DNA of 64,000 nucleotides from assembly GCA_045535935.1 (NCBI GenBank), contig JAZSMO010000012.1, positions 35,813 to 99,812 on the forward strand, given 5' to 3'. This document shows positions 36,828 through 58,717 of this stretch, one piece after another (the first letter of the stretch is position 1; each line of letters starts with the position of its first letter). The stretch is from Lachnospiraceae bacterium (GTDB lineage Bacteria > Bacillota > Clostridia > Lachnospirales > Lachnospiraceae). The notes under the pieces were generated by a model that saw only the letters and a program-made list of their open reading frames with translations, searched no databases and was not told where the DNA came from. The position numbers were made by a program, and so were the translations under genes.

Positions 36828-38423
36828 ATGAAGCTGATGTTTATTGGGGCCGATCATGAGGTTACGGGCAGTTGTCACTACATTGAGGCGTGTGGCAAGC
36901 ATATACTGATCGATTACGGCATGGAGCAGGGAGTCAATGTATTTGAAAATGTAGATATTCCGGTGCATGAGTCGATGATTGATTATGTGTTGTTGACGCA
37001 TGCGCATGTGGATCATTCCGGTATGCTTCCGCTGCTGTATGCAAGAGGATTCCGCGGGCAGATTTTTTCAACGGATGCCACGGCGGATCTTTGCAGTATT
37101 ATGCTTCGTGACTGTGCGCACATTCAGATGCAGGAGGCAGAATGGAAAAACCGCAAGGCAAAGCGTAGTGCGGCGCATCCGCCGGTAGAACCGCTTTATA
37201 CCATGGAAGATGCGGATGGAACCATCAAGTGCTTTGTGCCATGTCATTATGATCAGATGGTTACACTGTGTGAAGGGATTCAGATTCGGTTTACGGACAT
37301 CGGACATCTGCTTGGGTCTGCAAGTATTGAAGTCTGGATTACCGAGGATAAGGTTTCCAAGAAGATTGTGTTCTCGGGAGATATCGGCAATGTGGAACAA
37401 CCGCTGATCAAGGATCCTCAGTTAACCAAGGAGGCGGATTATGTAGTCATGGAATCCACCTAAGGTGACCGCATCCATTCGACAGAAAGACCGGATTATG
37501 TGGCGGAACTGACGCAGATACTCAAGGAGACCTTTGACAAGGGCGGTAATGTGGTCATCCCTTCCTTTGCGGTAGGGCGTACACAGGAAATGCTTTATTT
37601 CCTGCGCAAGATTAAGATGGAAAAACTGGTGGAAGGACATCCGGATTTTCCGGTGTATGTCGATAGCCCTTTGGCGGTGGAAGCGACAGGTATATTCCAC
37701 AAAAATATATATAACTGCTTTGATGAGGAAGCGATGGCCCTGGTCAATCAGGGGATTAACCCGATCAGCTTTCCGGGACTGCGGCTTTCCATCACAAGTG
37801 ATGAGTCAAAAGCAATCAACTTTGACGACACTCCTAAGGTTATCCTTTCAGCCTCCGGTATGTGTGAGGCCGGACGTATCCGCCATCATTTGAAACATAA
37901 CCTTTGGCGTCCGGAATGTACCGTTTTGTTTGTGGGATATCAGGCGGTCGGTACGCTGGGACGTATCATTGTGGAAGGCGTGGATGAAGTAAAATTGTTC
38001 GGTGAGCCGATTCAGGTGAGAGCCAAGATTGCGAAGCTGACCGGGCTTTCCGGACATGCGGACAAAAATGGTCTGATTGCATGGATTAACGGCTTTGAAA
38101 AAAAGCCGGAGCGAGTGTTTGTTGTCCATGGTGAAGATACCGTATGTTCAGCGTTTGCACAGTGCCTTCATCATGAATATGGGTATGAGACATATGCACC
38201 GTACAGCGGCGCGGAGTTTGATATGGTGACCAATACAATCACCTACGATGCCCAGGGAGTTGCGATCAAGAAAAAGAAAGTGGCAAGCGATATATTCCGC
38301 AGGCTGCTTGATGCAGGTCACAGACTTATGGCGGTTATTCAGCGCAATGAGGGTGGCGCAAACAAAGATCTTGCCAAGTTCGCAGATCAGATCAATGCGC
38401 TTTGTGACAAATGGGACAGATAA
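36828..38423 (+). pseudogene. beta-CASP metallo-beta-lactamase-fold RNA-metabolising hydrolase interrupted by a single in-frame TAA
   Basis: ORFs 36828..37463 and 37500..38423 are in the same frame. Reading through gives VVMEST*GDRIHSTERPDY, so TAA (37461-63) replaces Tyr of the conserved ESTYG motif. HAHVDHSG and the C-terminal GLSGHAD motifs are present. Confidence 0.8.
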
Positions 38424-44311: not shown

Positions 44312-45574
44312 ATGCGAAAATATAATCTGAGACAGGCACAGGTCAGCGATATGGTCGATCGCGGGACGCTTGCTTTGCAGGTGACAAGCTCTATTGGCAG
44401 GATTCCGGTGGAAAATGCCAGAATTCGCATTTCTTACACAGGGGAGCCGGATCGGGTTTTGGAGGAGTTAACAACAAATGACAGTGGGGAGACCGAAAAT
44501 GTTGAATTGGCGGCGCCTCCTATTGAACTGAGTCTTGAACCGTCGGAAATACAGCCGTATTCCGAATATAATATTCTGGTGGATGCGCCGGGATATGAGT
44601 CGGTTATCATTACCGGAAGCGAAATTCTTGCAGACCGGACAGCGGTTCAAAATGTGGTCATGACACCTGTTGAGAGTATGGACGAAGCGGAGGAAGATAT
44701 CGATATTCCGGAACATACGCTGTATGGGGATTATCCGTCCAAAATTCCTGAATCTGAGATTAAACCGATGGCTGAAACGGGAGAAATCGTATTGTCGCGT
44801 GTGGTAATTCCGGAATATGTGGTTGTTCATGATGGAGTTCCTTCGGATGCGACGGCAAATAATTATTATGTGAGATACAAGGATTATATTAAAAATGTTG
44901 TTTCTTCAGAGATTTATGCCACATGGCCGGAGGCTGCCATTTATGCCAATACGCTCTGTATTCTTTCGGTCACTTTGAACCGTGTGTTTACGGAGTGGTA
45001 TCGTGGGAAAGGGTATGATTTTACGATTACAAGCTCTACGGCTTATGATCAGAAGTGGATTTACGGAAGAAATACGTATGAAAATATGGATCGGATTGTG
45101 GATAGTATATTTGCAAACTATCTGTCACGTCCGGGAGTGAAACAGCCGATTTATACCGGTTATTGTGACGGTAACCAGACAAATTGCGACGGACTGAAGC
45201 AGTGGGGAAGCAAGTATCTGGCGGAGGAGGGGTATTCAGCCATAGAGATTATCCGCTATTATTTCGGAAATGACATGTATATCAATACGTCGGAGGCAAT
45301 TGCGGGGATTCCTGCGTCATGGCCGGGATATAATCTGGGAATCGGTGCAAGCGGGGATAAGGTGAGACAGATGCAGAACCAGCTTAGAAGAATTGCACAG
45401 AATTATCCGGCGATACCGGTAATCACGGCAGATGGGGTTTACGGAGAACAGACTGCTGAAGCAGTCCGTACATTCCAAAGAATATTCCGGCTTCCGCAGA
45501 CAGGCATAGTAGATTATTCTACGTGGTATGAGATATCTAATATCTATGTGGGTGTCACACGGATTGCGGAATAA
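44312..45574 (+). CDS. peptidoglycan-binding-domain protein, SleC-like putative cell-wall/spore-cortex hydrolase
   Basis: 420 aa. The N-terminus is a CarboxypepD_reg-like beta module. The central region resembles cortex-lytic enzymes. The C-terminal PG_binding_1 repeat is GDKVRQMQNQLRRIAQNYP...DGVYGEQTAEAVRTFQRIF. Confidence 0.6.
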   Translation: MRKYNLRQAQVSDMVDRGTLALQVTSSIGRIPVENARIRISYTGEPDRVLEELTTNDSGETENVELAAPPIELSLEPSEIQPYSEYNILVDAPGYESVIITGSEILADRTAVQNVVMTPVESMDEAEEDIDIPEHTLYGDYPSKIPESEIKPMAETGEIVLSRVVIPEYVVVHDGVPSDATANNYYVRYKDYIKNVVSSEIYATWPEAAIYANTLCILSVTLNRVFTEWYRGKGYDFTITSSTAYDQKWIYGRNTYENMDRIVDSIFANYLSRPGVKQPIYTGYCDGNQTNCDGLKQWGSKYLAEEGYSAIEIIRYYFGNDMYINTSEAIAGIPASWPGYNLGIGASGDKVRQMQNQLRRIAQNYPAIPVITADGVYGEQTAEAVRTFQRIFRLPQTGIVDYSTWYEISNIYVGVTRIAE

Positions 45575-45576
45575 AA

Positions 45577-45933
45577 TTATAATTGATTTTTGATGGCTTC
45601 GAAGCTCTGCTTGCTGATGATGTGTTCGATTTTGCAGGCATCTTCGATAGCTATATCTTCCGGGACACCGATTTTAATGAGCCAACCCGATAGCACTTCA
45701 TGTCTCTCGAATACCATTTCGGCAATTTCTTTTCCTGCATCGGTAAGATAGATGAATCCTGCGTCGGTTACCGTAATATAGTTTTTCTCGCGAAGATTTT
45801 TCATGGCTATACTGATGCTGGATTTTTTGAAATTTAACTCTGTGGCAATATCAATCGAACGGACAACCGGAAGTTTGCGGCTGAGTACCAGTATGGTTTC
45901 AAGATAATTTTCGGCAGATTCATTTATATGCAT
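45577..45933 (-). CDS. DtxR/MntR-family metal-dependent transcriptional regulator (short form)
   Basis: 118 aa. It has SAENYLETILVL, a winged HTH, and the RHEVL and EDACKIEHIIS metal-ligand regions. Confidence 0.8.
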   Translation of the reverse strand: MHINESAENYLETILVLSRKLPVVRSIDIATELNFKKSSISIAMKNLREKNYITVTDAGFIYLTDAGKEIAEMVFERHEVLSGWLIKIGVPEDIAIEDACKIEHIISKQSFEAIKNQL

Positions 45934-46051
45934 AACAAATTCCCTTCCCTACAAAAACAGATCTTTATAATTATAGAAAAGTATACCACACTAATCGGAA
46001 AAATGGTATACTTACAAAAAGAGTTTCTGCGTGGAAAGGGAGGTGAAACAG

Positions 46052-49000
46052 TTGTACCGTGTAGAGAGATATCTGTCGCTGGAAGATATGCAGCAGGATG
46101 GTGGTGTGCTCGAAGTGTCAGAGAGCAGGATCGAGTTGTCAGTGGGTGAGGATGAGGTCTGTGACGGTGAGATCAGAGTGCGCTCCGGATCGGGACGGGA
46201 GGTACATGTATTTTGTTATTCCGATCACTATCGGATGCAGTGCCGTGTCAATGAATTTATCGGAAGAGAAGGTACATTAAATTATCGTTTTGATGCGGCC
46301 GGTCTGGATGTCGGAAGCATCGTAAAGGGTGAATTTTGTCTGCTTTCCGAGGCGGGAGAATATCATATCCCGTTTTCGGTTACCGTCAGACAGCCTCTTG
46401 CCGGGACGTCGTTGGGAGAAATCCGCAATCTGTTTCACTTTGCAAACCTTGCCAAAGAAAATTGGAAAGAAGCGGTAAAGCTTTTTTATTCCGAGTATTT
46501 TCATATGCTTTTTTACGGGCACGATCATCGTTACTACGATCTCTACCGCGCGTTGTCGGGATGTGCGGGGAATGAGCACAATGTCGATGAGTTTCTTGTC
46601 GGGATACATAAAAAGCAGAAAAACACCTATCATGTGGCAGAGGAAGGATTGCTGTTAAACCATGTGTCGGGAGTGAGACAGGAGTCGCTCACACTGATTT
46701 GTGACGGATGGGGATATATGCATGTAAAAGTCCGCACGCAGGGAGAATTTTTGACTCCGCTGAAGACGAGCCTGTCGGAGGCGGATTTTGACCGGAATAC
46801 ATGCAAGGTGTTGTTTGAAGTGAATGAAGATATGCTTTTCGGTGAATGCGCGACAGGAAGTGTTGTGTTTGAATATGACGGAGGAAGTGTTGAGGTTCCG
46901 GTCATAGTCAACCGTCCGGCGGAGATGTCCCGAAAACAGTTGCAGAGGCAGGAAGAGAAGCTGTTACTTGTACAGCTGATGCACCAGTATATCGCTTGTG
47001 AAACATTGCCTTTGCAGCGCAGTGCCTATTTGAAGGATGCGGAGAAGACAATAGAGAAGATTAATGCCGGATATGGCAGGAATCTGTGGGGAAGATTGTA
47101 TCAGATGCATGTTCTGATAGAGCAGGATCGTGCAAATGAGGCCAAATGGGTTCTTTCCCATATAGAAAATACGCACAAGCAGGAAAATATGGAGCCGGCC
47201 CAATACGGATACTACCTTTACCTGCGAAGTGAACTTGCAGAGGATGAGAGATTTCGCAGAAGCGTCACGGAGCAATTAAAAAAGTTACTCGATGCTAACC
47301 CTAAAGAAACATTTCTCGCCTGTCTTTATATGAAGATGATGGAGGATGTGGTTTGGCAAAAACGACTCACCTTTTATGAGCATCAGTATGCACAGGGGAG
47401 TCGGAGTCCGCTGTTATATCTGGAAGCCTATAAAGTGTTTGCGGAAAGTCCGGCGTATCTTGTGAAGATAGATGAGTTCGAGATCAGCGTGTTGCGATTC
47501 GGAATACGTTATGGGTTATATACGGCGGAGATGGCAGAGAGGGTCGCTGATCTGATTCTCCGGAAGAAGGATATGTCTGCCATGCTTTTCCGTTTTTTGG
47601 GAGAAAGCTACGGAGTGTATCCGCAGGATTCCATGTTGCAGGCGCTTTGCGTTCTGATGATCCGCAGCGGTATGTGCGGACCGGAGTGCTTCGGCTGGTA
47701 TGAACTTGCAGTGCACAAGCAGATGAGAATCACGTCGCTGTATGAATATTATATGAGATCGGCTGATACGAGAGCGGATCGCCTTCCGCCGAGAGCAGTT
47801 CTCATGTATTTTGCATATCGGTGTGACCTGGATGAAAGAAGAATCGCATATCTGTATGCGCTTCTGGTACGGCACAGGGAAGAGATTCCGGAGCTGTTTC
47901 GCCAATATAGGGATAATATAGAACAATTTGCAATTTCAGAACTTGAAAAGGGACTGATCAGTGAGAATCTGGCGGTGATATACCGGTATTTTCTTGCAGA
48001 AGGGGAGACGGTGCTTCCGAAGGACAAAATACAAAAGGTGGCCTTTCGCCATTTGATCAAGGTGCACAGGGACGGAATTGCAAATGTGATTGTCGTACAG
48101 GACAAATTAAAACAGGAAACGGCCTACCCGATTGAGAAAGACCGTGCGTATGTGGATTGCTATACACCGGATTATGTCGTTGTTCTTGAGGATGCAGAAG
48201 GAAACCGTTACTGTGACGAAGCCGCTTGGACCGATATCCAATTGATGCCGGTGGAGAAGCCGGCGATGTATCTGCCCCAGCAACCGGTGACCAATATCGG
48301 AATTGCGCTTTATCAGACAAATATAGGTGGCAATCCGGAGCAGGCCGATCCGGCGCTTTGGCCGATATATGAGCAGCTGGCGGTTTCTTCGCGGGTGGAT
48401 GAAGGATATCGCTGTGAGGTCGCAACCCGATTGTTACGGTTGTATTTTGACAATGAGAAATACGATGAGATGCACAGGATTTTGAAATCGTATGATGTAT
48501 CTGCTGTCACGTCGTCTGAGCGTGCTGAGGTGGTACGCTACCTGGTTTATCTGGAGCAGGATGCACAGGCACTGGATATTTTGTACAATTATGGATTTGA
48601 AAATGTATCGGCGAAGGTACTCGCCCGGTTGATCGTAAGAATCCTGGAGACCGAACCGCTGTTTGACGGAAGGCTGTCGGCGCTCGTGTACTATACATTT
48701 AAGCTTGGGAAATATACACAGGATATGTTGCTGTATCTTTGCCGATATTTTGAAGGGTCACTGAAACAGATGCGTGATATATGGCGGGCGGCGGCCGGTT
48801 TTGATGTGGATGCATCCCGCATTGCGGAGCGGATTCTTCAGGCGTATTTGTTTTCTCGTGCCTATCTGGCGGGGATAGCGGATGTGTTTGAGTACTATAT
48901 GTCGCACAGGAAAAGAGACAGCGTGGTCAGATGTTATCTTCGTGCAATGGCATATCGCTATTTTGTGAAGCAGCAGGTTGTTTCGCCGGAAGTATTTACG

Positions 49001-49588
49001 GCAATGGAAAATCTTCTTTGTAACAGCAGTGAGACGGATGATGTGAGCAAGGTGGCATATTTACATTATATGGCTACCGAAACAGACAGTTACAGTGACA
49101 GGCAAAAAATGTTGATCACGGAACTTGTCAATGAGCTTATTTCGGAAAAACAGTATGTCCCGTTCCTTTCCTCTTTTACAGCGTTTATTCCATGGCTTCG
49201 CCCGTATGCAGAACTGTCGTATCTGGAATACCGGACGGCTCCGGGAAGTGTGGTGACCTTGCATTATCTGCAGGAAGGCCGGGAAGAACAATACTGCCAG
49301 AAGAAATTGGATGAAATTTGTGCCGGTTATTTCTGTCACAACTTTGTTTTGTTTTTCGGCCAGCGTCTGCAATATTATTTTACGGAGAGTAATGACGGGG
49401 AACGAAAACTGACAGAGAGCGGCTTTTTGGAAAAGAGCGATATGACCGGAGAGGAAAGTGAGAGCAGATACGGTCTTCTCAATGATATTGTGATGTGTGA
49501 TGCGTTGGGAGATGAGAGGACGAAGCAGGAGCTTATTTCGAGATACAAAAAGGAGTCCCTTCGGACGGAGTTACTATTTGGAGAATAA
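46052..49588 (+). CDS. large uncharacterised protein: two N-terminal beta-sandwich-like modules, about 800 aa helical-repeat region, beta-rich C-terminus
   Basis: ORF 46031..49588. The likely start is TTG 46052, 6 nt after GGGAGGTG. I recognise no catalytic motif and see no TM helix. It is the first gene of a coupled four-gene operon. Confidence 0.7.
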   Translation: MYRVERYLSLEDMQQDGGVLEVSESRIELSVGEDEVCDGEIRVRSGSGREVHVFCYSDHYRMQCRVNEFIGREGTLNYRFDAAGLDVGSIVKGEFCLLSEAGEYHIPFSVTVRQPLAGTSLGEIRNLFHFANLAKENWKEAVKLFYSEYFHMLFYGHDHRYYDLYRALSGCAGNEHNVDEFLVGIHKKQKNTYHVAEEGLLLNHVSGVRQESLTLICDGWGYMHVKVRTQGEFLTPLKTSLSEADFDRNTCKVLFEVNEDMLFGECATGSVVFEYDGGSVEVPVIVNRPAEMSRKQLQRQEEKLLLVQLMHQYIACETLPLQRSAYLKDAEKTIEKINAGYGRNLWGRLYQMHVLIEQDRANEAKWVLSHIENTHKQENMEPAQYGYYLYLRSELAEDERFRRSVTEQLKKLLDANPKETFLACLYMKMMEDVVWQKRLTFYEHQYAQGSRSPLLYLEAYKVFAESPAYLVKIDEFEISVLRFGIRYGLYTAEMAERVADLILRKKDMSAMLFRFLGESYGVYPQDSMLQALCVLMIRSGMCGPECFGWYELAVHKQMRITSLYEYYMRSADTRADRLPPRAVLMYFAYRCDLDERRIAYLYALLVRHREEIPELFRQYRDNIEQFAISELEKGLISENLAVIYRYFLAEGETVLPKDKIQKVAFRHLIKVHRDGIANVIVVQDKLKQETAYPIEKDRAYVDCYTPDYVVVLEDAEGNRYCDEAAWTDIQLMPVEKPAMYLPQQPVTNIGIALYQTNIGGNPEQADPALWPIYEQLAVSSRVDEGYRCEVATRLLRLYFDNEKYDEMHRILKSYDVSAVTSSERAEVVRYLVYLEQDAQALDILYNYGFENVSAKVLARLIVRILETEPLFDGRLSALVYYTFKLGKYTQDMLLYLCRYFEGSLKQMRDIWRAAAGFDVDASRIAERILQAYLFSRAYLAGIADVFEYYMSHRKRDSVVRCYLRAMAYRYFVKQQVVSPEVFTAMENLLCNSSETDDVSKVAYLHYMATETDSYSDRQKMLITELVNELISEKQYVPFLSSFTAFIPWLRPYAELSYLEYRTAPGSVVTLHYLQEGREEQYCQKKLDEICAGYFCHNFVLFFGQRLQYYFTESNDGERKLTESGFLEKSDMTGEESESRYGLLNDIVMCDALGDERTKQELISRYKKESLRTELLFGE

Positions 49589-49591
49589 AAA

Positions 49592-50887
49592 GTGGATGTT
49601 GTAATCGGATATGATATAAATGAATATTACGCACAGATTTCCTATGCAGGACCGGGGCAGGAACCTGAGACGCTGGAATTTCCGGCGTTTAAGGAGGAGG
49701 GGAATATCGAGACGGCTCTTTGCAAACGCCATGGAGTAAATCAGTGGTTTTGCGGAAAGGAAGCAGTCAAAAAAGGGGTTTCCGGAGATGGGACGCTGGT
49801 GGAGCATTTGTGGACTCTGCTCGGCGAGCAGGAAACAATTCTTATTGAAAAAAAAGAGTACCGGACGGCCGAGCTTTGCAACCTTTTTCTGGGAAGGACG
49901 CTTACCTGGGCATTGGGACGTCTGGAAGAAATCTACAAAGAACCGGTCCATGTCAGGGCGTTGATGCTTTCTTCCGAGAATTACAAAGATATCATGCGCA
50001 AGCAGGCAGATGTTTTGACGGCCGCACTTCCGGTGCCGCCGGAACGCATCTTTTTTCAAGGACATGAAGACAGTCTGTATGCGTATATGGTACATCAGCC
50101 GGAGAGACTGAGAGGCTATGAAACGGGCGTGTTTGACCTGACCGGAGAGACAATGGTGTCCTATCGTGTCACAATGAACCACCGAACACAGCCGATTGTC
50201 ACTACCGTAGAGAAGCAACCGGTTTTGGAGCTTGTAAAAAAGAAACATTACCCGTCGATTATGGAACATGACCGCTGCCTTGCGCAGCTTGATTTGCAGC
50301 TGAAGGCCTATGTGGAAGCATTTACGCAGGGAAGGATTGTGACAAGTCTTTATCTGATCGGAGACGGATTTCAAGGGGATTGGTACAAAGAAAGCCTGAA
50401 AGTGCTGTGCCGCAATCGGAAAGTATATGCAGGAAACAATCTGTTCGGAAAAGGCGCCTGCTACAGTGCGATAGAAAAAATATGGCCGACGGAAGATTAC
50501 GCCAATTTCCTGTTTATGGGGCGTGATATGCTTCGTTATAATGTGGGGGTATCTTTGCAAAACCACGACGGAGAAGAGTATTATCCTCTGTTGGATGCCG
50601 GGACGAACTGGTACGACGCAAAGTCCGAGATTACATTTATGATGGAAGATCCGGAATCGGTGGAACTATTGATTACACCGATCAGCGGAACCGGTGCGTA
50701 CACGGAAACGCTTTGTCTTGAACCTTTGCCTAAACGGCCGTTTCGCAGCTATCGGATGACGCTCACGGCACAAATGCAATCAGAAGAAAATCTTTATATC
50801 TCTATTCAGGATGAGGGATTTGGTGAGCTGTATCCCAAAGTACCTCTCGGTATGACTTATGATCTTACACTCGGAGGAAATAAATGA
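49592..50887 (+). CDS. HSP70/actin-fold protein with degenerate nucleotide-binding motifs
   Basis: The GTG start lies 3 nt after the upstream stop, with a GGAGA SD. It is collinear with the DnaK NBD: VVIGYDINEYYAQIS (phosphate-1), ALMLSSENY...RIFFQGHEDSLYAY, GVFDLTGETMVSY (phosphate-2), LYLIGDGFQ (adenosine), NNLFGKGACYSA. Confidence 0.7.
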   Translation: MDVVIGYDINEYYAQISYAGPGQEPETLEFPAFKEEGNIETALCKRHGVNQWFCGKEAVKKGVSGDGTLVEHLWTLLGEQETILIEKKEYRTAELCNLFLGRTLTWALGRLEEIYKEPVHVRALMLSSENYKDIMRKQADVLTAALPVPPERIFFQGHEDSLYAYMVHQPERLRGYETGVFDLTGETMVSYRVTMNHRTQPIVTTVEKQPVLELVKKKHYPSIMEHDRCLAQLDLQLKAYVEAFTQGRIVTSLYLIGDGFQGDWYKESLKVLCRNRKVYAGNNLFGKGACYSAIEKIWPTEDYANFLFMGRDMLRYNVGVSLQNHDGEEYYPLLDAGTNWYDAKSEITFMMEDPESVELLITPISGTGAYTETLCLEPLPKRPFRSYRMTLTAQMQSEENLYISIQDEGFGELYPKVPLGMTYDLTLGGNK

Positions 50888-51657
50888 GTAAACTATATAC
50901 CTGTATAGGTAAAACGGCGCAAAAACCATATAGTATCCTGTCGGGCAAAGTAAATGTCTATACATTGGAGGAAATCTGCTTTTGTATCTGTGACAGGACA
51001 GACCTTCTGGACGATACATTCCTAAGTGGCGGGCTTGCAGAATTTGTGAGAACGCAGCTCGGACTGGATGATCTGGCGCAGAATCTGGACAGAGTGCTGG
51101 AACAAGGCTGTCTTTTGCATGAGTTTTGTGATATGATTCTCTCGTATGCGGCATATCCGGATCAGGGAATACGTCGAAAGGTCGTGGAACAGATCAGAGA
51201 GAATCAGGAGCTTTCCGTTGTGGACAGACTTGTTCGCAGGGCCGATACTTACCATAGGGAAAAGGAGTATTACAAAGCACAAAAAGCTTATCGAAACCTT
51301 CTTCTTATGGAGGAGGTGCAGCAGGATTTTGCTTTGACGGCGCAGTTGTATGATAAGCTGGGATGCGTGGCGGCAAAGATGTTTCATTATGAAACGGCGG
51401 GATATTGCTTTGAGAAGAGCTGCAGATTTGTTGAAAATGCGCAGGTGCGCAAAAAGTACATGCTGTGTATGCGTCTCACGATGCCACGGGAGAAATATAT
51501 GAACCGGGTAATGCAGCAGGAAGATTGCGGACAATGGATCGCCGAGGTCGAACAGGCTTATGAGACGGCGGATATACATGCGCAGCAGTATTGGAAGGAT
51601 AACACGGCGGATATGAATCAGATCAAAGAGGAGTTCTGCCGGATGGTATTGGAGTAA
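50884..51657 (+). CDS. uncharacterised helical (TPR-like) protein
   Basis: 257 aa. Its ATG overlaps the upstream TGA (ATGA). It contains a TPR-like segment YYKAQKAYRNLLLMEE...LYDKLGCVAAKMFHYETAGYCFEKS. Confidence 0.65.
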   Translation: MSKLYTCIGKTAQKPYSILSGKVNVYTLEEICFCICDRTDLLDDTFLSGGLAEFVRTQLGLDDLAQNLDRVLEQGCLLHEFCDMILSYAAYPDQGIRRKVVEQIRENQELSVVDRLVRRADTYHREKEYYKAQKAYRNLLLMEEVQQDFALTAQLYDKLGCVAAKMFHYETAGYCFEKSCRFVENAQVRKKYMLCMRLTMPREKYMNRVMQQEDCGQWIAEVEQAYETADIHAQQYWKDNTADMNQIKEEFCRMVLE

Positions 51658-51659
51658 GT

Positions 51660-52865
51660 ATGAGTTTCTGGGAAAAATTGTTTAAAAGAGTAAACAAATA
51701 CAGAAATATCGATGAGATGATGGACGAGGAACTCCGTCCTGATGAGGAGGACGGCTATATCGTATCCCCGGATCAGATCGATATAAAAAATTCCGGCGAC
51801 AGAGAGCGATATGTGCTCAGTTTGCTGGAACAGATTGCAGATGCATCGGTGCAGATTGAATCCTACAAGGAAGAGTACAGTACCGTCAACCGTTATCTGC
51901 AGGATACGGAGGATTTGGAGTATATTCGCGGAGAAGACAAAAACAGTCTCATGGAATATGCCAAGGCAATCAGTCTTTTGGAAAAAGATAAGACCAAATA
52001 TGAAGAGAAAAAACAGCGGCTTGCAGATGACGATTTCATCCGCATGGAAAAATTGGAAGAAAACGCAGAAGAAGGCATCCGAAAGCTGACGGAGGCGGAG
52101 GAATACCAACAGGCAATCCGCAGTGATTTAATGCGGCTTGAAAATGAGAAACAGGCCTGCATGTTCCGGAAACAGGAGGCGGCTGCGGCGATGGAAAATC
52201 TTCGCGGAATGGCGATTATTTGTACCGTGGCTTTGTTTGCCTGCATGGGAATGCTTATTTTTATGCAGTTTGTGCTGGAAATGAAAACGCTGGTCGGTTA
52301 TATACTGACAGCATCGGTTGCGGCTTTGGCGCTTACGGCTATGTACATGAAATACGTCGAAGCGGTGAGTGAAAAGAAGCGTTCTTCTCATAGTCTGAAC
52401 AAAGTTATCCTTTTGCAGAACAGAGTTAAAATCCGCTATGTGAACAACACCAATCTTGTGGATTATCTATATATGAAGTATGGGGTTTCTTCGGCAAAAG
52501 AACTGACACAGATATGGGGACGATACCAGTCTGAAAAGGAGGAGCGGGCCCGGATCAAAGAAACCATGAAAGACCTTTCGTTTACACAGGAGCAGCTGGT
52601 CCGTCTTCTGCGCAAGTACAATTTGTATGACCCGGTCATCTGGCTGCATCAGGTGGATGCGATTTTGGATCCGAAGGAAATGGTGGAGGTGCGCCATGCA
52701 CTGATTGCCAGAAGACAAAAAATCCGCAAGCAGATGGAATTCAATACCGAGAATGCGGAAAGTGCCCAGCAGCTGATCAGAGACTTGGTGGGAGAGTATC
52801 CGCAGTATGCAAAAGAAATATTGAAGATGGTTTCCGATTATGAGGACAAATACCCGTCATCCTAA
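51660..52865 (+). CDS. uncharacterised coiled-coil membrane protein (two central TM helices)
   Basis: 401 aa, starting 2 nt after the upstream stop. The N-terminal 180 aa or so is charged heptad-like sequence. A TM hairpin follows (GMAIICTVALFACMGMLIFMQFVL / LVGYILTASVAALALTAMYM). The C-terminal 170 aa or so is helical. Confidence 0.65.
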   Translation: MSFWEKLFKRVNKYRNIDEMMDEELRPDEEDGYIVSPDQIDIKNSGDRERYVLSLLEQIADASVQIESYKEEYSTVNRYLQDTEDLEYIRGEDKNSLMEYAKAISLLEKDKTKYEEKKQRLADDDFIRMEKLEENAEEGIRKLTEAEEYQQAIRSDLMRLENEKQACMFRKQEAAAAMENLRGMAIICTVALFACMGMLIFMQFVLEMKTLVGYILTASVAALALTAMYMKYVEAVSEKKRSSHSLNKVILLQNRVKIRYVNNTNLVDYLYMKYGVSSAKELTQIWGRYQSEKEERARIKETMKDLSFTQEQLVRLLRKYNLYDPVIWLHQVDAILDPKEMVEVRHALIARRQKIRKQMEFNTENAESAQQLIRDLVGEYPQYAKEILKMVSDYEDKYPSS

Positions 52866-57220: not shown

Positions 57221-58717
57221 ATGAAGAAAAACAGCATTCCGAAACAGCTTTTACAGGCTGGGATGACTTTGGCGGACCGCAGATATCGGGTGGATGAACT
57301 GATTGGCGATAACGGTCTGACTGTCACATATAAGGGATATGACACCTTCCGCAAAAAGATTGTCGTAATCCGGGAGCTTTTCCCGCAGTCCATATTGAAC
57401 AGAGATATAGACCATGATTACAAGGTCGAGTGCAAAAAGATGTCGGATGAAGAGTTGTTTCAAAGTATGAAGGAACACATGATCCGCAGAGCCAAAAAGT
57501 TGATCGGATTGTATCCGGTGGACGGAATTGTAAATGTGTTGACTTATCTTGAGGAGCGAGAGACGGTCTATGTGATCGAGGAATATGTGCAGGGCCAGAC
57601 ATTAGAAAATAAACTGTGGAAGAGACACAGTGCCAAGTTTTTGCCGGAGGATCTCATGCAGTACCTGCTTCCTGTGATGGAAACATTGATGCGTCTTCAC
57701 GCACAGGGGATGTTTCACGGCAGTGTGTATCCGGAAAATATAATCCTTACTGCGGACGGAAAGGTATTGCTGGCAGATATGGTGAATCCGATAGAGGATG
57801 TGTCAGCGCCGCAGCTCGGAGACATTAAGATTCGCAAGGATGCATATTCTCCGGTGGAATTATACGTCCCGGAGGCAAAGAGAGGACCGTCTGCGGACAT
57901 CTATGAAGTGTCAGCAATTTTTTACCGTTACGCGACGGGAGAGCCGCTTCCTGTTTATTATGACAGAGTCAATGAGGAAAAGAAAACAGAAGATCCGCTT
58001 CATATGCAGACAAGGGTTATGAAGTTCCAGAGTGAGGCGATTATGAAAGGAACGGCAGTTTATGACTTTGAACGCTATGAGACGATGGAGCAGCTAAGAG
58101 ATGCGCTTTGCCCTGAGGATGTGGATTATGAGCATCTGAATGCAAAGATGATGGAGGCAAAGACTTTCTCCAAGGAAGATTTATGGTACAAACACGGGAA
58201 AAGAGCCAGAAATAAATATGTGTTTACGGTTGCGGCGATTCTGATCGTGGCAGTGATTGCTCTGGGACCGGGACTGACGGACGTCGGGAAAAGCGTTTTG
58301 ATTAACCGATTTTATCAAAAATTTTCCGAAGCGGATATGGCAAAGCAGTTTGTTATGGTGGCCGGAATGTCCAAGACGGAGCGTGATTTGTACACAAACA
58401 ATTATGTGGATGTGGATCGTACACTTTCCGACGAAGAAAATTCGGAACAGATGGAGATCAAATATTATGATTTCCAGTTGGAAAAATATATTACAAATGA
58501 AAAGTTCGATACGACGAAAACTTATTACGAATATATGAAAATTGATTATCGTCAGAATGAGGTATGGGTCAACTATATATCTGACATGAAAAATGTACAG
58601 ACGACGATGAAGTTGGTGCCGAACCGGGATGGTAAATACGAAGTCAAGACCATATCTGTAGATAAGTATGGGGAGTCGGAAGAAGAAATCATTTATGTGA
58701 ATTACACAAAAAAATAA
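57221..58717 (+). CDS. membrane-anchored Hanks-type kinase-fold protein, predicted pseudokinase
   Basis: 498 aa. The kinase fold is recognisable (IGDNGLTVTYKG, YVIEEYVQGQTL, SPVE, SADIYEV). However VAIK reads VVIR and HRDxKPEN reads HGSVYPEN. One TM helix lies near residues 335-355 and a C-terminal domain of about 140 aa follows. Confidence 0.7.
   Translation: MKKNSIPKQLLQAGMTLADRRYRVDELIGDNGLTVTYKGYDTFRKKIVVIRELFPQSILNRDIDHDYKVECKKMSDEELFQSMKEHMIRRAKKLIGLYPVDGIVNVLTYLEERETVYVIEEYVQGQTLENKLWKRHSAKFLPEDLMQYLLPVMETLMRLHAQGMFHGSVYPENIILTADGKVLLADMVNPIEDVSAPQLGDIKIRKDAYSPVELYVPEAKRGPSADIYEVSAIFYRYATGEPLPVYYDRVNEEKKTEDPLHMQTRVMKFQSEAIMKGTAVYDFERYETMEQLRDALCPEDVDYEHLNAKMMEAKTFSKEDLWYKHGKRARNKYVFTVAAILIVAVIALGPGLTDVGKSVLINRFYQKFSEADMAKQFVMVAGMSKTERDLYTNNYVDVDRTLSDEENSEQMEIKYYDFQLEKYITNEKFDTTKTYYEYMKIDYRQNEVWVNYISDMKNVQTTMKLVPNRDGKYEVKTISVDKYGESEEEIIYVNYTKK

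Follow-up and report, generated by a model that had tools for sequence, protein, structure and literature searches.

We have analyzed a stretch of 64,000 nucleotides (the window, always taken at its full length) of contig JAZSMO010000012.1, from the genome of a Lachnospiraceae bacterium (assembly GCA_045535935.1). It contains a gene of the Pfam family DUF5716 that codes for an Hsp70 paralog without the alpha-helical lid and with degenerate ATPase motifs. Hsp70s are defined by an ATP-driven cycle. We think it probable (roughly 0.7) that this dead, lidless Hsp70 permanently clamps the TPR-like protein coded by the next gene, or acts as its adaptor, within a complex that is based on a DUF5717 protein and is often tethered to the membrane. 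An earlier description made from the letters alone (the sequence-only reading) had proposed an HSP70/actin-fold protein with substituted ATP-binding signatures at this place. The gene and its start signal are the following.

49592..50887, + strand: DUF5716 protein of 431 aa, Hsp70 paralog lacking the lid, its ATPase motifs degenerate (reading frame, Pfam, model and structure matches).
49580..49583, + strand: GGAG ribosome-binding site, 8 nt 5' of the GTG (read from the sequence).

The frame opens with a GTG at 49592 and closes with a TGA ending at 50887. The stop codon of the 1185-aa gene upstream (49586-49588) is found 3 nt before this start, and the ATG of the gene downstream, at 50884, shares the ATGA with the DUF5716 stop. 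The protein matched Pfam DUF5716_C (PF18980) along residues 124-416 with an E-value of 8.8e-80 (268.3 bits, the cut-off being 34.7). The databases held 226 relatives with identities of 33-80% and the same start and length, and the homologs open with the same M-D/E-V-V-I-G. According to their source names, nearly all of these relatives are Lachnospiraceae, with a few Acetatifactor or Bacillota. Given the DUF5716_C match and the shared start of the 226 relatives, this is a real gene and not a chance open reading frame. The search of the protein against NCBIfam gave no match. The strings on which the sequence-only reading was built could be located in the protein, namely DINEYYA (residues 8-14), SSENY (127-131), RIFFQGHEDSLYAY (152-165), DLTGETMV (182-189), GDGFQ (257-261) and NNLFGKGACYSA (282-293).

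The fold of the protein is that of an Hsp70. The AlphaFold2 model, obtained with a 46-sequence alignment, had a mean predicted local distance difference test score (pLDDT) of 90.6 and a predicted template modelling score (pTM) of 0.81. When the model was compared with the PDB by Foldseek, all of the 50 top matches listed were Hsp70s, with E-values down to 4e-18. In the same way, the 50 entries listed by VIA-align all belonged to the Hsp70 family (Z 21-23). On full-length Hsp70 entries, residues 2-428 were superimposed on DnaK 2-504 (393 residues in the case of 7kru_A) with Z 22-23, while the entries that consist of the nucleotide-binding domain (NBD) only were aligned to residues 1-300. Among the structural matches with the highest scores (Z 21.9-23.1), Hsp110/Sse1 and Ssz1 were level with DnaK. 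The direct alignment of the DUF5716 and DnaK profiles by hhalign was also collinear, running from residues 1-415 against DnaK 1-471, and the collinearity with the DnaK NBD that had been claimed from the letters is thus borne out by structure and profile. Besides, the root-mean-square deviation (rmsd) of the full-length model was 6.8-6.9 A to docked DnaK (7kru and 7krv) and 18-19 A to the undocked ADP states (2v7y and 5obu). The better superposition on docked DnaK hints, at the level of the model, at a fixed docked arrangement of DUF5716.

Searches of the PDB chains by sequence, with the protein and with the family profile, gave no match at E-values up to 10. Because the direct alignment of the DUF5716 and DnaK profiles is weak (the values are given below), descent was argued by way of intermediate paralogs, which were taken from other families of the same order. 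DUF5716 aligned by hhalign to a group of 523-aa paralogs with a probability of 100% (E 3e-44) and to the Hsp70 paralog H3 with 98.1% (E 8e-14). In turn, the 523-aa group aligned to DnaK with 99.1% and H3 with 100% (E 3e-45). A further paralog, H1, gave nothing against DUF5716 (1.3%). Specifically, the 523-aa protein of one of these loci, L054, matches both PF18980 (DUF5716_C, 1.5e-26) and PF00012 (1.4e-17). We also built a maximum-likelihood tree with DnaK as the root. In it, the 13 DUF5716 proteins sampled formed a group (SH-aLRT, the Shimodaira-Hasegawa-like approximate likelihood ratio test, of 100) nested inside the Hsp70s of these clusters, with the order H4-vWA, H1, H3, 523-aa paralogs, a 494-aa intermediate and DUF5716. 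The branching order is indicative only, since long branches meet in it. The profile comparisons indicate a statistically supported homology of DUF5716 to true Hsp70s, of a transitive kind only.

Within this fold, the motifs of the ATPase have been replaced. The lines below give the domain and its former motifs; the correspondences with DnaK were obtained by both hhalign and MAFFT.

49592..50497, + strand: NBD fold, residues 1-302, with lobe IIB mostly deleted (VIA-align Z 21-23).
49607..49636, + strand: former phosphate-1 loop, G6-Q15 (GYDINEYYAQ), against DnaK GIDLGTTNS.
49811..49813, + strand: W74, at the position of the DnaK catalytic Lys70 (both methods concur).
50057..50074, + strand: Q156-S161 (QGHEDS), against DnaK N-E-P-T-A-A with the catalytic Glu171.
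50129..50158, + strand: former phosphate-2 loop, V180-V189 (VFDLTGETMV), against DnaK VYDLGGGTFD.
50354..50383, + strand: former adenosine motif, L255-W264 (LIGDGFQGDW), against DnaK LVGGSTRIP.
50432..50458, + strand: G281-A289 (GNNLFGKGA), against the Hsp70 NPDE-VA-GA.

The catalytic residues of E. coli DnaK are Lys70 and Glu171. We counted the conservation of each motif over 46 members of the DUF5716 family. In the phosphate-1 loop G6 and Q15 are invariant and position 8 is D or E, positions 10-14 being variable and never Thr-Thr. The position of Lys70 is occupied by L, W, Y or V and never by K. The counterpart of Glu171 is Q156 by hhalign and H158 by MAFFT, a register uncertain by 2; in the family Q156 is kept in 43/46, H158 in 35/46, and an acidic residue (E or D) stands at 160 throughout. 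In the phosphate-2 loop D182 is present in 30 of the 46 sequences, and the G-G-G-T positions are variable or deleted. The adenosine motif is changed and yet conserved (G257 in 46/46, D or E at 258, G259 in 44/46, F260 and W264 in 45/46 each). No stretch varies less across the family than G281-A289, where G281, N282, N283, G288 and A289 never change. Since both phosphate loops vary and the position of Lys70 is never K across the family, the alignments indicate that no selection maintains a phosphate-binding site.

In Hsp70s, lobe IIB walls the adenosine pocket on one side and makes the contact with GrpE. The structural matches to the NBD covered 275-294 residues of Hsp70 chains that have some 380, and about 90 DnaK residues between the hairpin of IIA and the last helix of IIB had no counterpart in the alignment with DUF5716. 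In this region DSSP gives a single helix (223-245). Most of lobe IIB appears to have been lost. The pairings of motifs that the sequence-only reading had proposed (with DLGTTNS, DLGGGTFD, GGSTR and NPDE..GA) were reproduced by profile-profile and by multiple alignment, and the phosphate-binding residues, once properly aligned, were conserved neither in the protein nor in the family. Judged by this replacement of motifs, a pseudo-ATPase that acts as a non-catalytic structural or regulatory subunit seems the best reading, as had been suggested.

After the NBD the protein continues with a linker and a second domain.

50498..50884, + strand: beta part of the substrate-binding domain (SBD-beta), residues 303-431, with no alpha-helical lid after it (fold of the isolated tail, PDB matches and hhalign).
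50507..50521, + strand: hydrophobic interdomain linker, F306-G310 (FLFMG; YVFLG in the family), against DnaK VLLLD (hhalign).

The hydrophobic linker is the element that transmits allostery in Hsp70s. When residues 303-431 were folded alone the pLDDT was 86, and this model of the tail was compared, without prefilter, to 48,161 PDB representatives. Seven matches were above background, six of them titled as Hsp70-family. The best one was the SBD of human Hsp70 (Z 10.2, rmsd 2.9 A, 114 residues aligned), followed by chain 6u42_5F from a ciliary doublet-microtubule entry (Z 10.0), mortalin SBD (Z 9.5), BiP (Z 8.5), Sse1 (Z 7.6), a chain of entry 5mb9 (Z 7.3), which is the ribosome-associated complex (RAC, Ssz1-Zuo1), and the DnaK SBD (Z 7.0). 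The eighth was already an unrelated PRMT barrel (Z 5.9). Besides, hhalign aligned the profile of the tail to the SBD-beta of paralog H3 with 95.9%. The chain ends a few residues past the last strand of SBD-beta. As modelled, the tail is a canonical SBD-beta sandwich and the alpha-helical lid alone is missing. The sequence-only reading had seen a tail rich in beta structure, some 125 residues long, which DSSP finds in the model, and had taken it as a replacement of both the canonical SBD and the lid. The loss of the lid stands, but the SBD has not been replaced, as shown by Z-scores up to 10.2 and by the match to H3.

The gene is part of a conserved operon, with the following members at its sides.

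46031..49588, + strand: DUF5717 protein of 1185 aa, presumed scaffold (DUF5717_N, E 1.9e-234; DUF5717, E 1.4e-79).
50884..51657, + strand: TPR-like helical partner of 257 aa, coupled through the ATGA (weak TPR matches, synteny and fusions).
51660..52865, + strand: fourth gene, coiled-coil protein of 401 aa (hydropathy scan).

We compared 16 related loci, which came from other genera within the family. The order DUF5717, DUF5716, TPR-like gene was kept in 16/16, and the coiled-coil gene followed the TPR-like gene in nine of them. The 401-aa protein has two hydrophobic helices, at approximately residues 183-203 and 210-232, and from its sequence looks like an optional membrane anchor. In several relatives of 685-725 aa, DUF5716 and the TPR-like protein are fused, and the C-terminal part of one of these fusions matches the 257-aa protein with an E-value of 2e-32. 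Among 201 genomes of the order, 102 carried DUF5716_C and 106 carried DUF5717, and the tallies by family were near-identical. Both were present in the 17/17 sampled genomes of the family to which the window belongs, where the operon is single-copy. A single copy in every one of these genomes speaks more for housekeeping than for defence. Family scans detected no GrpE-like or J-domain gene in the operon of the window. In its own genome (85.7% complete) the only matches to PF00012 were one canonical DnaK and two proteins of MreB type, and the dnaK operon lies on another contig. The scans for promoters and terminators gave results no richer than those of shuffled sequence. The look-up of DUF5717 in a protein atlas returned its own family only, and our literature searches found no study of DUF5716 or DUF5717.

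We have also predicted the complex of DUF5716 with the TPR-like protein, using the two proteins of the window and their alignments. The interface score (ipSAE) was 0.77, 0.77 and 0.79, against 0.00 for the best control; the mark used for this score is attained in 58 of 80 solved complexes and in 2 of 110 mismatched pairs. The contacts agreed by at least 98% between runs, and the pLDDT of the partner was at least 82. The predicted interface is wholly on SBD-beta and involves these elements.

50549..50566, + strand: residues 320-325, equivalent to DnaK beta1 and L1,2 (E. coli I401-G406), predicted contact with the partner (interface and hhalign).
50633..50665, + strand: residues 348-358, equivalent to DnaK beta3, L3,4 and beta4 (E. 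coli F426-V436), predicted contact with the partner (interface and hhalign).
50884..50904, + strand: residues 1-7 of the partner (MSKLYTC), predicted to lie in the SBD-beta groove (complex model).
50968..50973, + strand: E29-E30 of the partner, predicted to contact R388 and the 410-413 loop (complex model).

Residues 320-325 and 348-358 correspond to the classical peptide groove of Hsp70s and are predicted to touch residues 1-7 of the partner, whose N-terminal consensus is M-x-x-x-hydrophobic-L-C. The second contact involves conserved residues as well. E29-E30 are invariant in 19 homologs of the partner, R388 of DUF5716 is conserved in at least 90%, and the 410-413 loop belongs to a conserved DEGFGE motif.

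We propose the following explanation. DUF5716 has retained the actin-type NBD, the hydrophobic linker and the SBD-beta sandwich of an Hsp70. Both phosphate loops, the catalytic lysine, the adenosine motif GGxxR and the lid are gone, and so, it appears, is most of lobe IIB. We infer that it would neither bind ATP nor cycle with it, and that it would stay in a fixed, probably docked, conformation. The groove of SBD-beta would then permanently hold the conserved N-terminal tip of the neighbouring TPR-like protein, and the pair would act as a non-enzymatic adaptor in a complex with the 1185-aa DUF5717 protein. In many species the coiled-coil protein with its two transmembrane helices would tether this complex to the membrane. 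Going further, the DUF5717 protein, the dead Hsp70, the TPR-like protein and, in the species that have it, the two-transmembrane protein might form an undescribed, nucleotide-independent cytoplasmic machine of the Lachnospiraceae core, in which a bacterial Hsp70 has become a permanent clamp, as a prokaryotic counterpart of Ssz1 with Zuo1, its conserved cleft binds a new ligand or partner, and the task is one of membrane housekeeping (for example in the envelope, division or sporulation) and not of stress proteostasis. We offer this wider picture only tentatively and consider it doubtful as a whole.

Several observations weigh against the explanation. The PF00012 (HSP70) profile does not detect the 431-aa protein. 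The support of profile-profile alignment for HSP70 came from the transitive path (98-100%), the direct hhalign comparison of DUF5716 with DnaK, with 27 DnaKs, giving 45% in local mode (P 2e-4) and 12% in global mode. The loss of the nucleotide pocket is deduced from alignments in which the register of Glu171 shifts by 2 between methods. Regarding the partner, the result for the complex is a model score, which supports binding but does not show it. The placement of the N-terminal tip in the groove may come from likeness to solved complexes, because those of Hsp70 with peptides and of Ssz1 with Zuo1 have been solved. Finally, the former cleft keeps a set of invariant or near-invariant residues (Q15, Q156, G257, G259, F260, W264 and G281-N282-N283), which could make up the site of a different ligand.

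This last point leads to the alternative that the remodelled cleft binds a nucleotide or some other small ligand and that DUF5716 is a switch controlled by this ligand and not a fixed scaffold. The sequence-only reading had named a non-canonical nucleotide site as its other possibility. The cleft residues are indeed among the most conserved of the family, with Q15, G257 and G281-N282-N283 present in 46/46, and the linker that carries allostery has been kept. But the same residues may equally stabilise the packing of the lobes or the docking of the linker. The phosphate loops are variable, one of them with deletions, no Lys is found at the position of K70, most of the lobe that forms a wall of the adenosine pocket is missing, and the operon has no gene for a GrpE-like or J-domain protein. 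We consider a ligand-controlled switch unlikely.

Another role that could be imagined is that of Hsp110, with DUF5716 as a co-chaperone (a nucleotide-exchange factor or a holdase) of the housekeeping DnaK. The tie of Hsp110/Sse1 and Ssz1 with DnaK in the structural comparison would agree with it, as would the presence of one canonical DnaK in the genome. The exchange activity of Hsp110 needs bound ATP and contacts by lobe IIB, and to judge from the alignments DUF5716 retains neither the ATP site nor the lobe. Its linkage is strictly with the DUF5717 and TPR-like genes and not with the dnaK operon, and a co-chaperone of this kind seems quite improbable. We give hardly any credence to an actin-like filament former of the MreB or ParM type that would not derive from Hsp70, in spite of the NBD belonging to the actin/Hsp70/sugar-kinase fold class and of the comparison having been proposed in the sequence-only reading, as hhalign of the DUF5716 family with the two MreB homologs of the genome gave 0.2% (99.3% in the control of DnaK with MreB), the entries listed by Foldseek and VIA-align were Hsp70s throughout, the linker and SBD-beta of Hsp70s are present, and filament formers depend on nucleotide while the motifs for it are gone from DUF5716.

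DUF5716 represents a bacterial Hsp70 stripped to the core of the NBD, the linker and the peptide clamp, and kept in single copy, always with the same two partners. Stable ATPase-dead Hsp70s that act as structural subunits are known chiefly in eukaryotes, Ssz1 being an example. The host family comprises dominant gut bacteria of humans and animals, and the protein was found in every sampled genome of it. DUF5716 would thus offer a natural minimal model of an Hsp70 scaffold that works without nucleotide. Besides, the analysis supplies the Pfam families DUF5716 and DUF5717 with a structural assignment and with a map of partners that can be put to the test.

Other genes of the window deserve a brief description. 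A small DtxR/MntR-type metal-dependent repressor is coded at 45577-45933 (- strand), divergent from the DUF5717 operon. It was considered as a part of the system and rejected, with homologs beside the operon in 0/16 related loci, and probably stands there by chance. The gene at 44312-45574 (+ strand), immediately before the operon, codes for a SpoIID-like protein that carries a peptidoglycan-binding domain at its C-terminus. A close homolog (E 6.5e-160) appears upstream, on the opposite strand, in related locus L071 only, and with this presence in 1/16 loci the gene was likewise rejected as a component. Genes of an amino-acid ABC transporter downstream of the operon were found in 4/16 loci, which reduces them to local synteny. 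Downstream of these, at 57221-58717 (+ strand), a protein of 498 aa gave a weak match to Ser/Thr protein kinases (E 7e-13). Away from the operon, a metallo-beta-lactamase / beta-CASP / RMMBL hydrolase with an architecture like that of RNase J (36828-38423, + strand) is split by an in-frame TAA at 37461-37463. The stop falls within VMEST*GDR, presumably at the Tyr position of the conserved E-S-T-Y-G motif, and leaves two open reading frames of 211 and 307 aa in the same frame. The split reflects a nonsense pseudogene or else an error in the assembly.

Among the known systems, a likeness in theme is shown by the conflict systems built around GTPases and GAP1 (GAP1-N2) of Firmicutes and Actinobacteria, which carry an accessory Hsp70 with its own GrpE and a TPR/DnaJ-FNIII protein (Kaur et al., 2020; PMC7159879). 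This was the only paper retrieved by our searches for atypical bacterial Hsp70s and for Hsp70/vWA/GrpE operons. The likeness does not go beyond the theme of an accessory Hsp70, a GrpE and a TPR repeat protein. The extra Hsp70 of those systems has no peptide-binding domain (PMC7159879), whereas this domain is the best-kept part of DUF5716. No GTPase family was matched among the genes of the operon or the neighbours scanned. In addition, the single copy of the operon in all 17 sampled genomes of the family is more in keeping with a core gene than with a defence island.

When compared with DnaK (PF00012), DUF5716 has the same order of NBD, linker and SBD-beta, collinear along residues 1-415 against 1-471 and with Z 22. 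It differs in the absence of the phosphate loops, K70, GGxxR, most of IIB and the lid, and in being coded in an operon without DnaJ or GrpE. The atypical Hsp70 Ssz1 of the eukaryotic RAC (PDB 5mb9, 6sr6 and 4gni) is among the top structural matches of DUF5716, with Z 23.1 and 22.7. Ssz1 keeps its phosphate loops and lobe IIB, unlike DUF5716, in which the loops and most of the lobe are gone. It has a complete SBD-beta and no SBD-alpha lid, does not hydrolyze ATP and follows no canonical cycle, but retains the binding of ATP (PMC7083937). Ssz1 and Zuo1 form an obligate heterodimer in which the first seven residues of Zuo1 occupy the groove of SBD-beta as a stabilising pseudo-substrate (PMC7083937). 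In our model residues 1-7 of the DUF5716 partner are predicted in the equivalent groove. The partners themselves are different. That of Ssz1 is a J-domain protein that acts on a third Hsp70 at the ribosome, whereas that of DUF5716 is a small TPR-like protein with no J domain, the third component being the 1185-aa DUF5717 protein. The likeness would be an analogy of mechanism, with no sign of common descent beyond the Hsp70 superfamily.

The closest relative of the operon is an extended form found in other Lachnospirales-type families, of which no study appeared in our literature searches, as for the reduced form. In loci L054 and L055 it codes for DUF5717, a first Hsp70, a protein with a GrpE domain, the DUF5716-like paralog, another Hsp70, a fusion of Hsp70 with vWA and a longer TPR protein. 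The Hsp70-vWA gene (L054 7495-9573 and L055 6787-8862, both on the - strand) codes for a fusion of a motif-intact lidless Hsp70 with a von Willebrand A domain at the C-terminus, and adjoins a protein of 630-644 aa with a C-terminal GrpE domain. Three paralogs of the extended cluster keep DxGTTNS, Lys70, DxGGGT and GGS. The DUF5716-like paralog of 523 aa is half-degenerate (GIDIGTKST, DYGGQQ, VGGGF) and still has lobe IIB. The extended operon of L054 and that of the window share DUF5717 as first gene, and the 523-aa paralog is close kin of DUF5716 in the tree (SH-aLRT 100). The N-terminal motif of the TPR protein is also shared, as observed for the corresponding gene of L055, the sister locus. 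In contrast, the operon of the window does not have the three motif-intact Hsp70s, the GrpE-domain protein or the vWA fusion, and in its DUF5716 lobe IIB and the phosphate-loop residues that remained in the 523-aa paralog are gone as well. The extended and reduced operons can be arranged as an evolutionary series, from an active cluster of several Hsp70s to a dead remnant, and the loss of the motif-intact Hsp70s and of the exchange factor from the form in the window fits a core that works without a nucleotide cycle.

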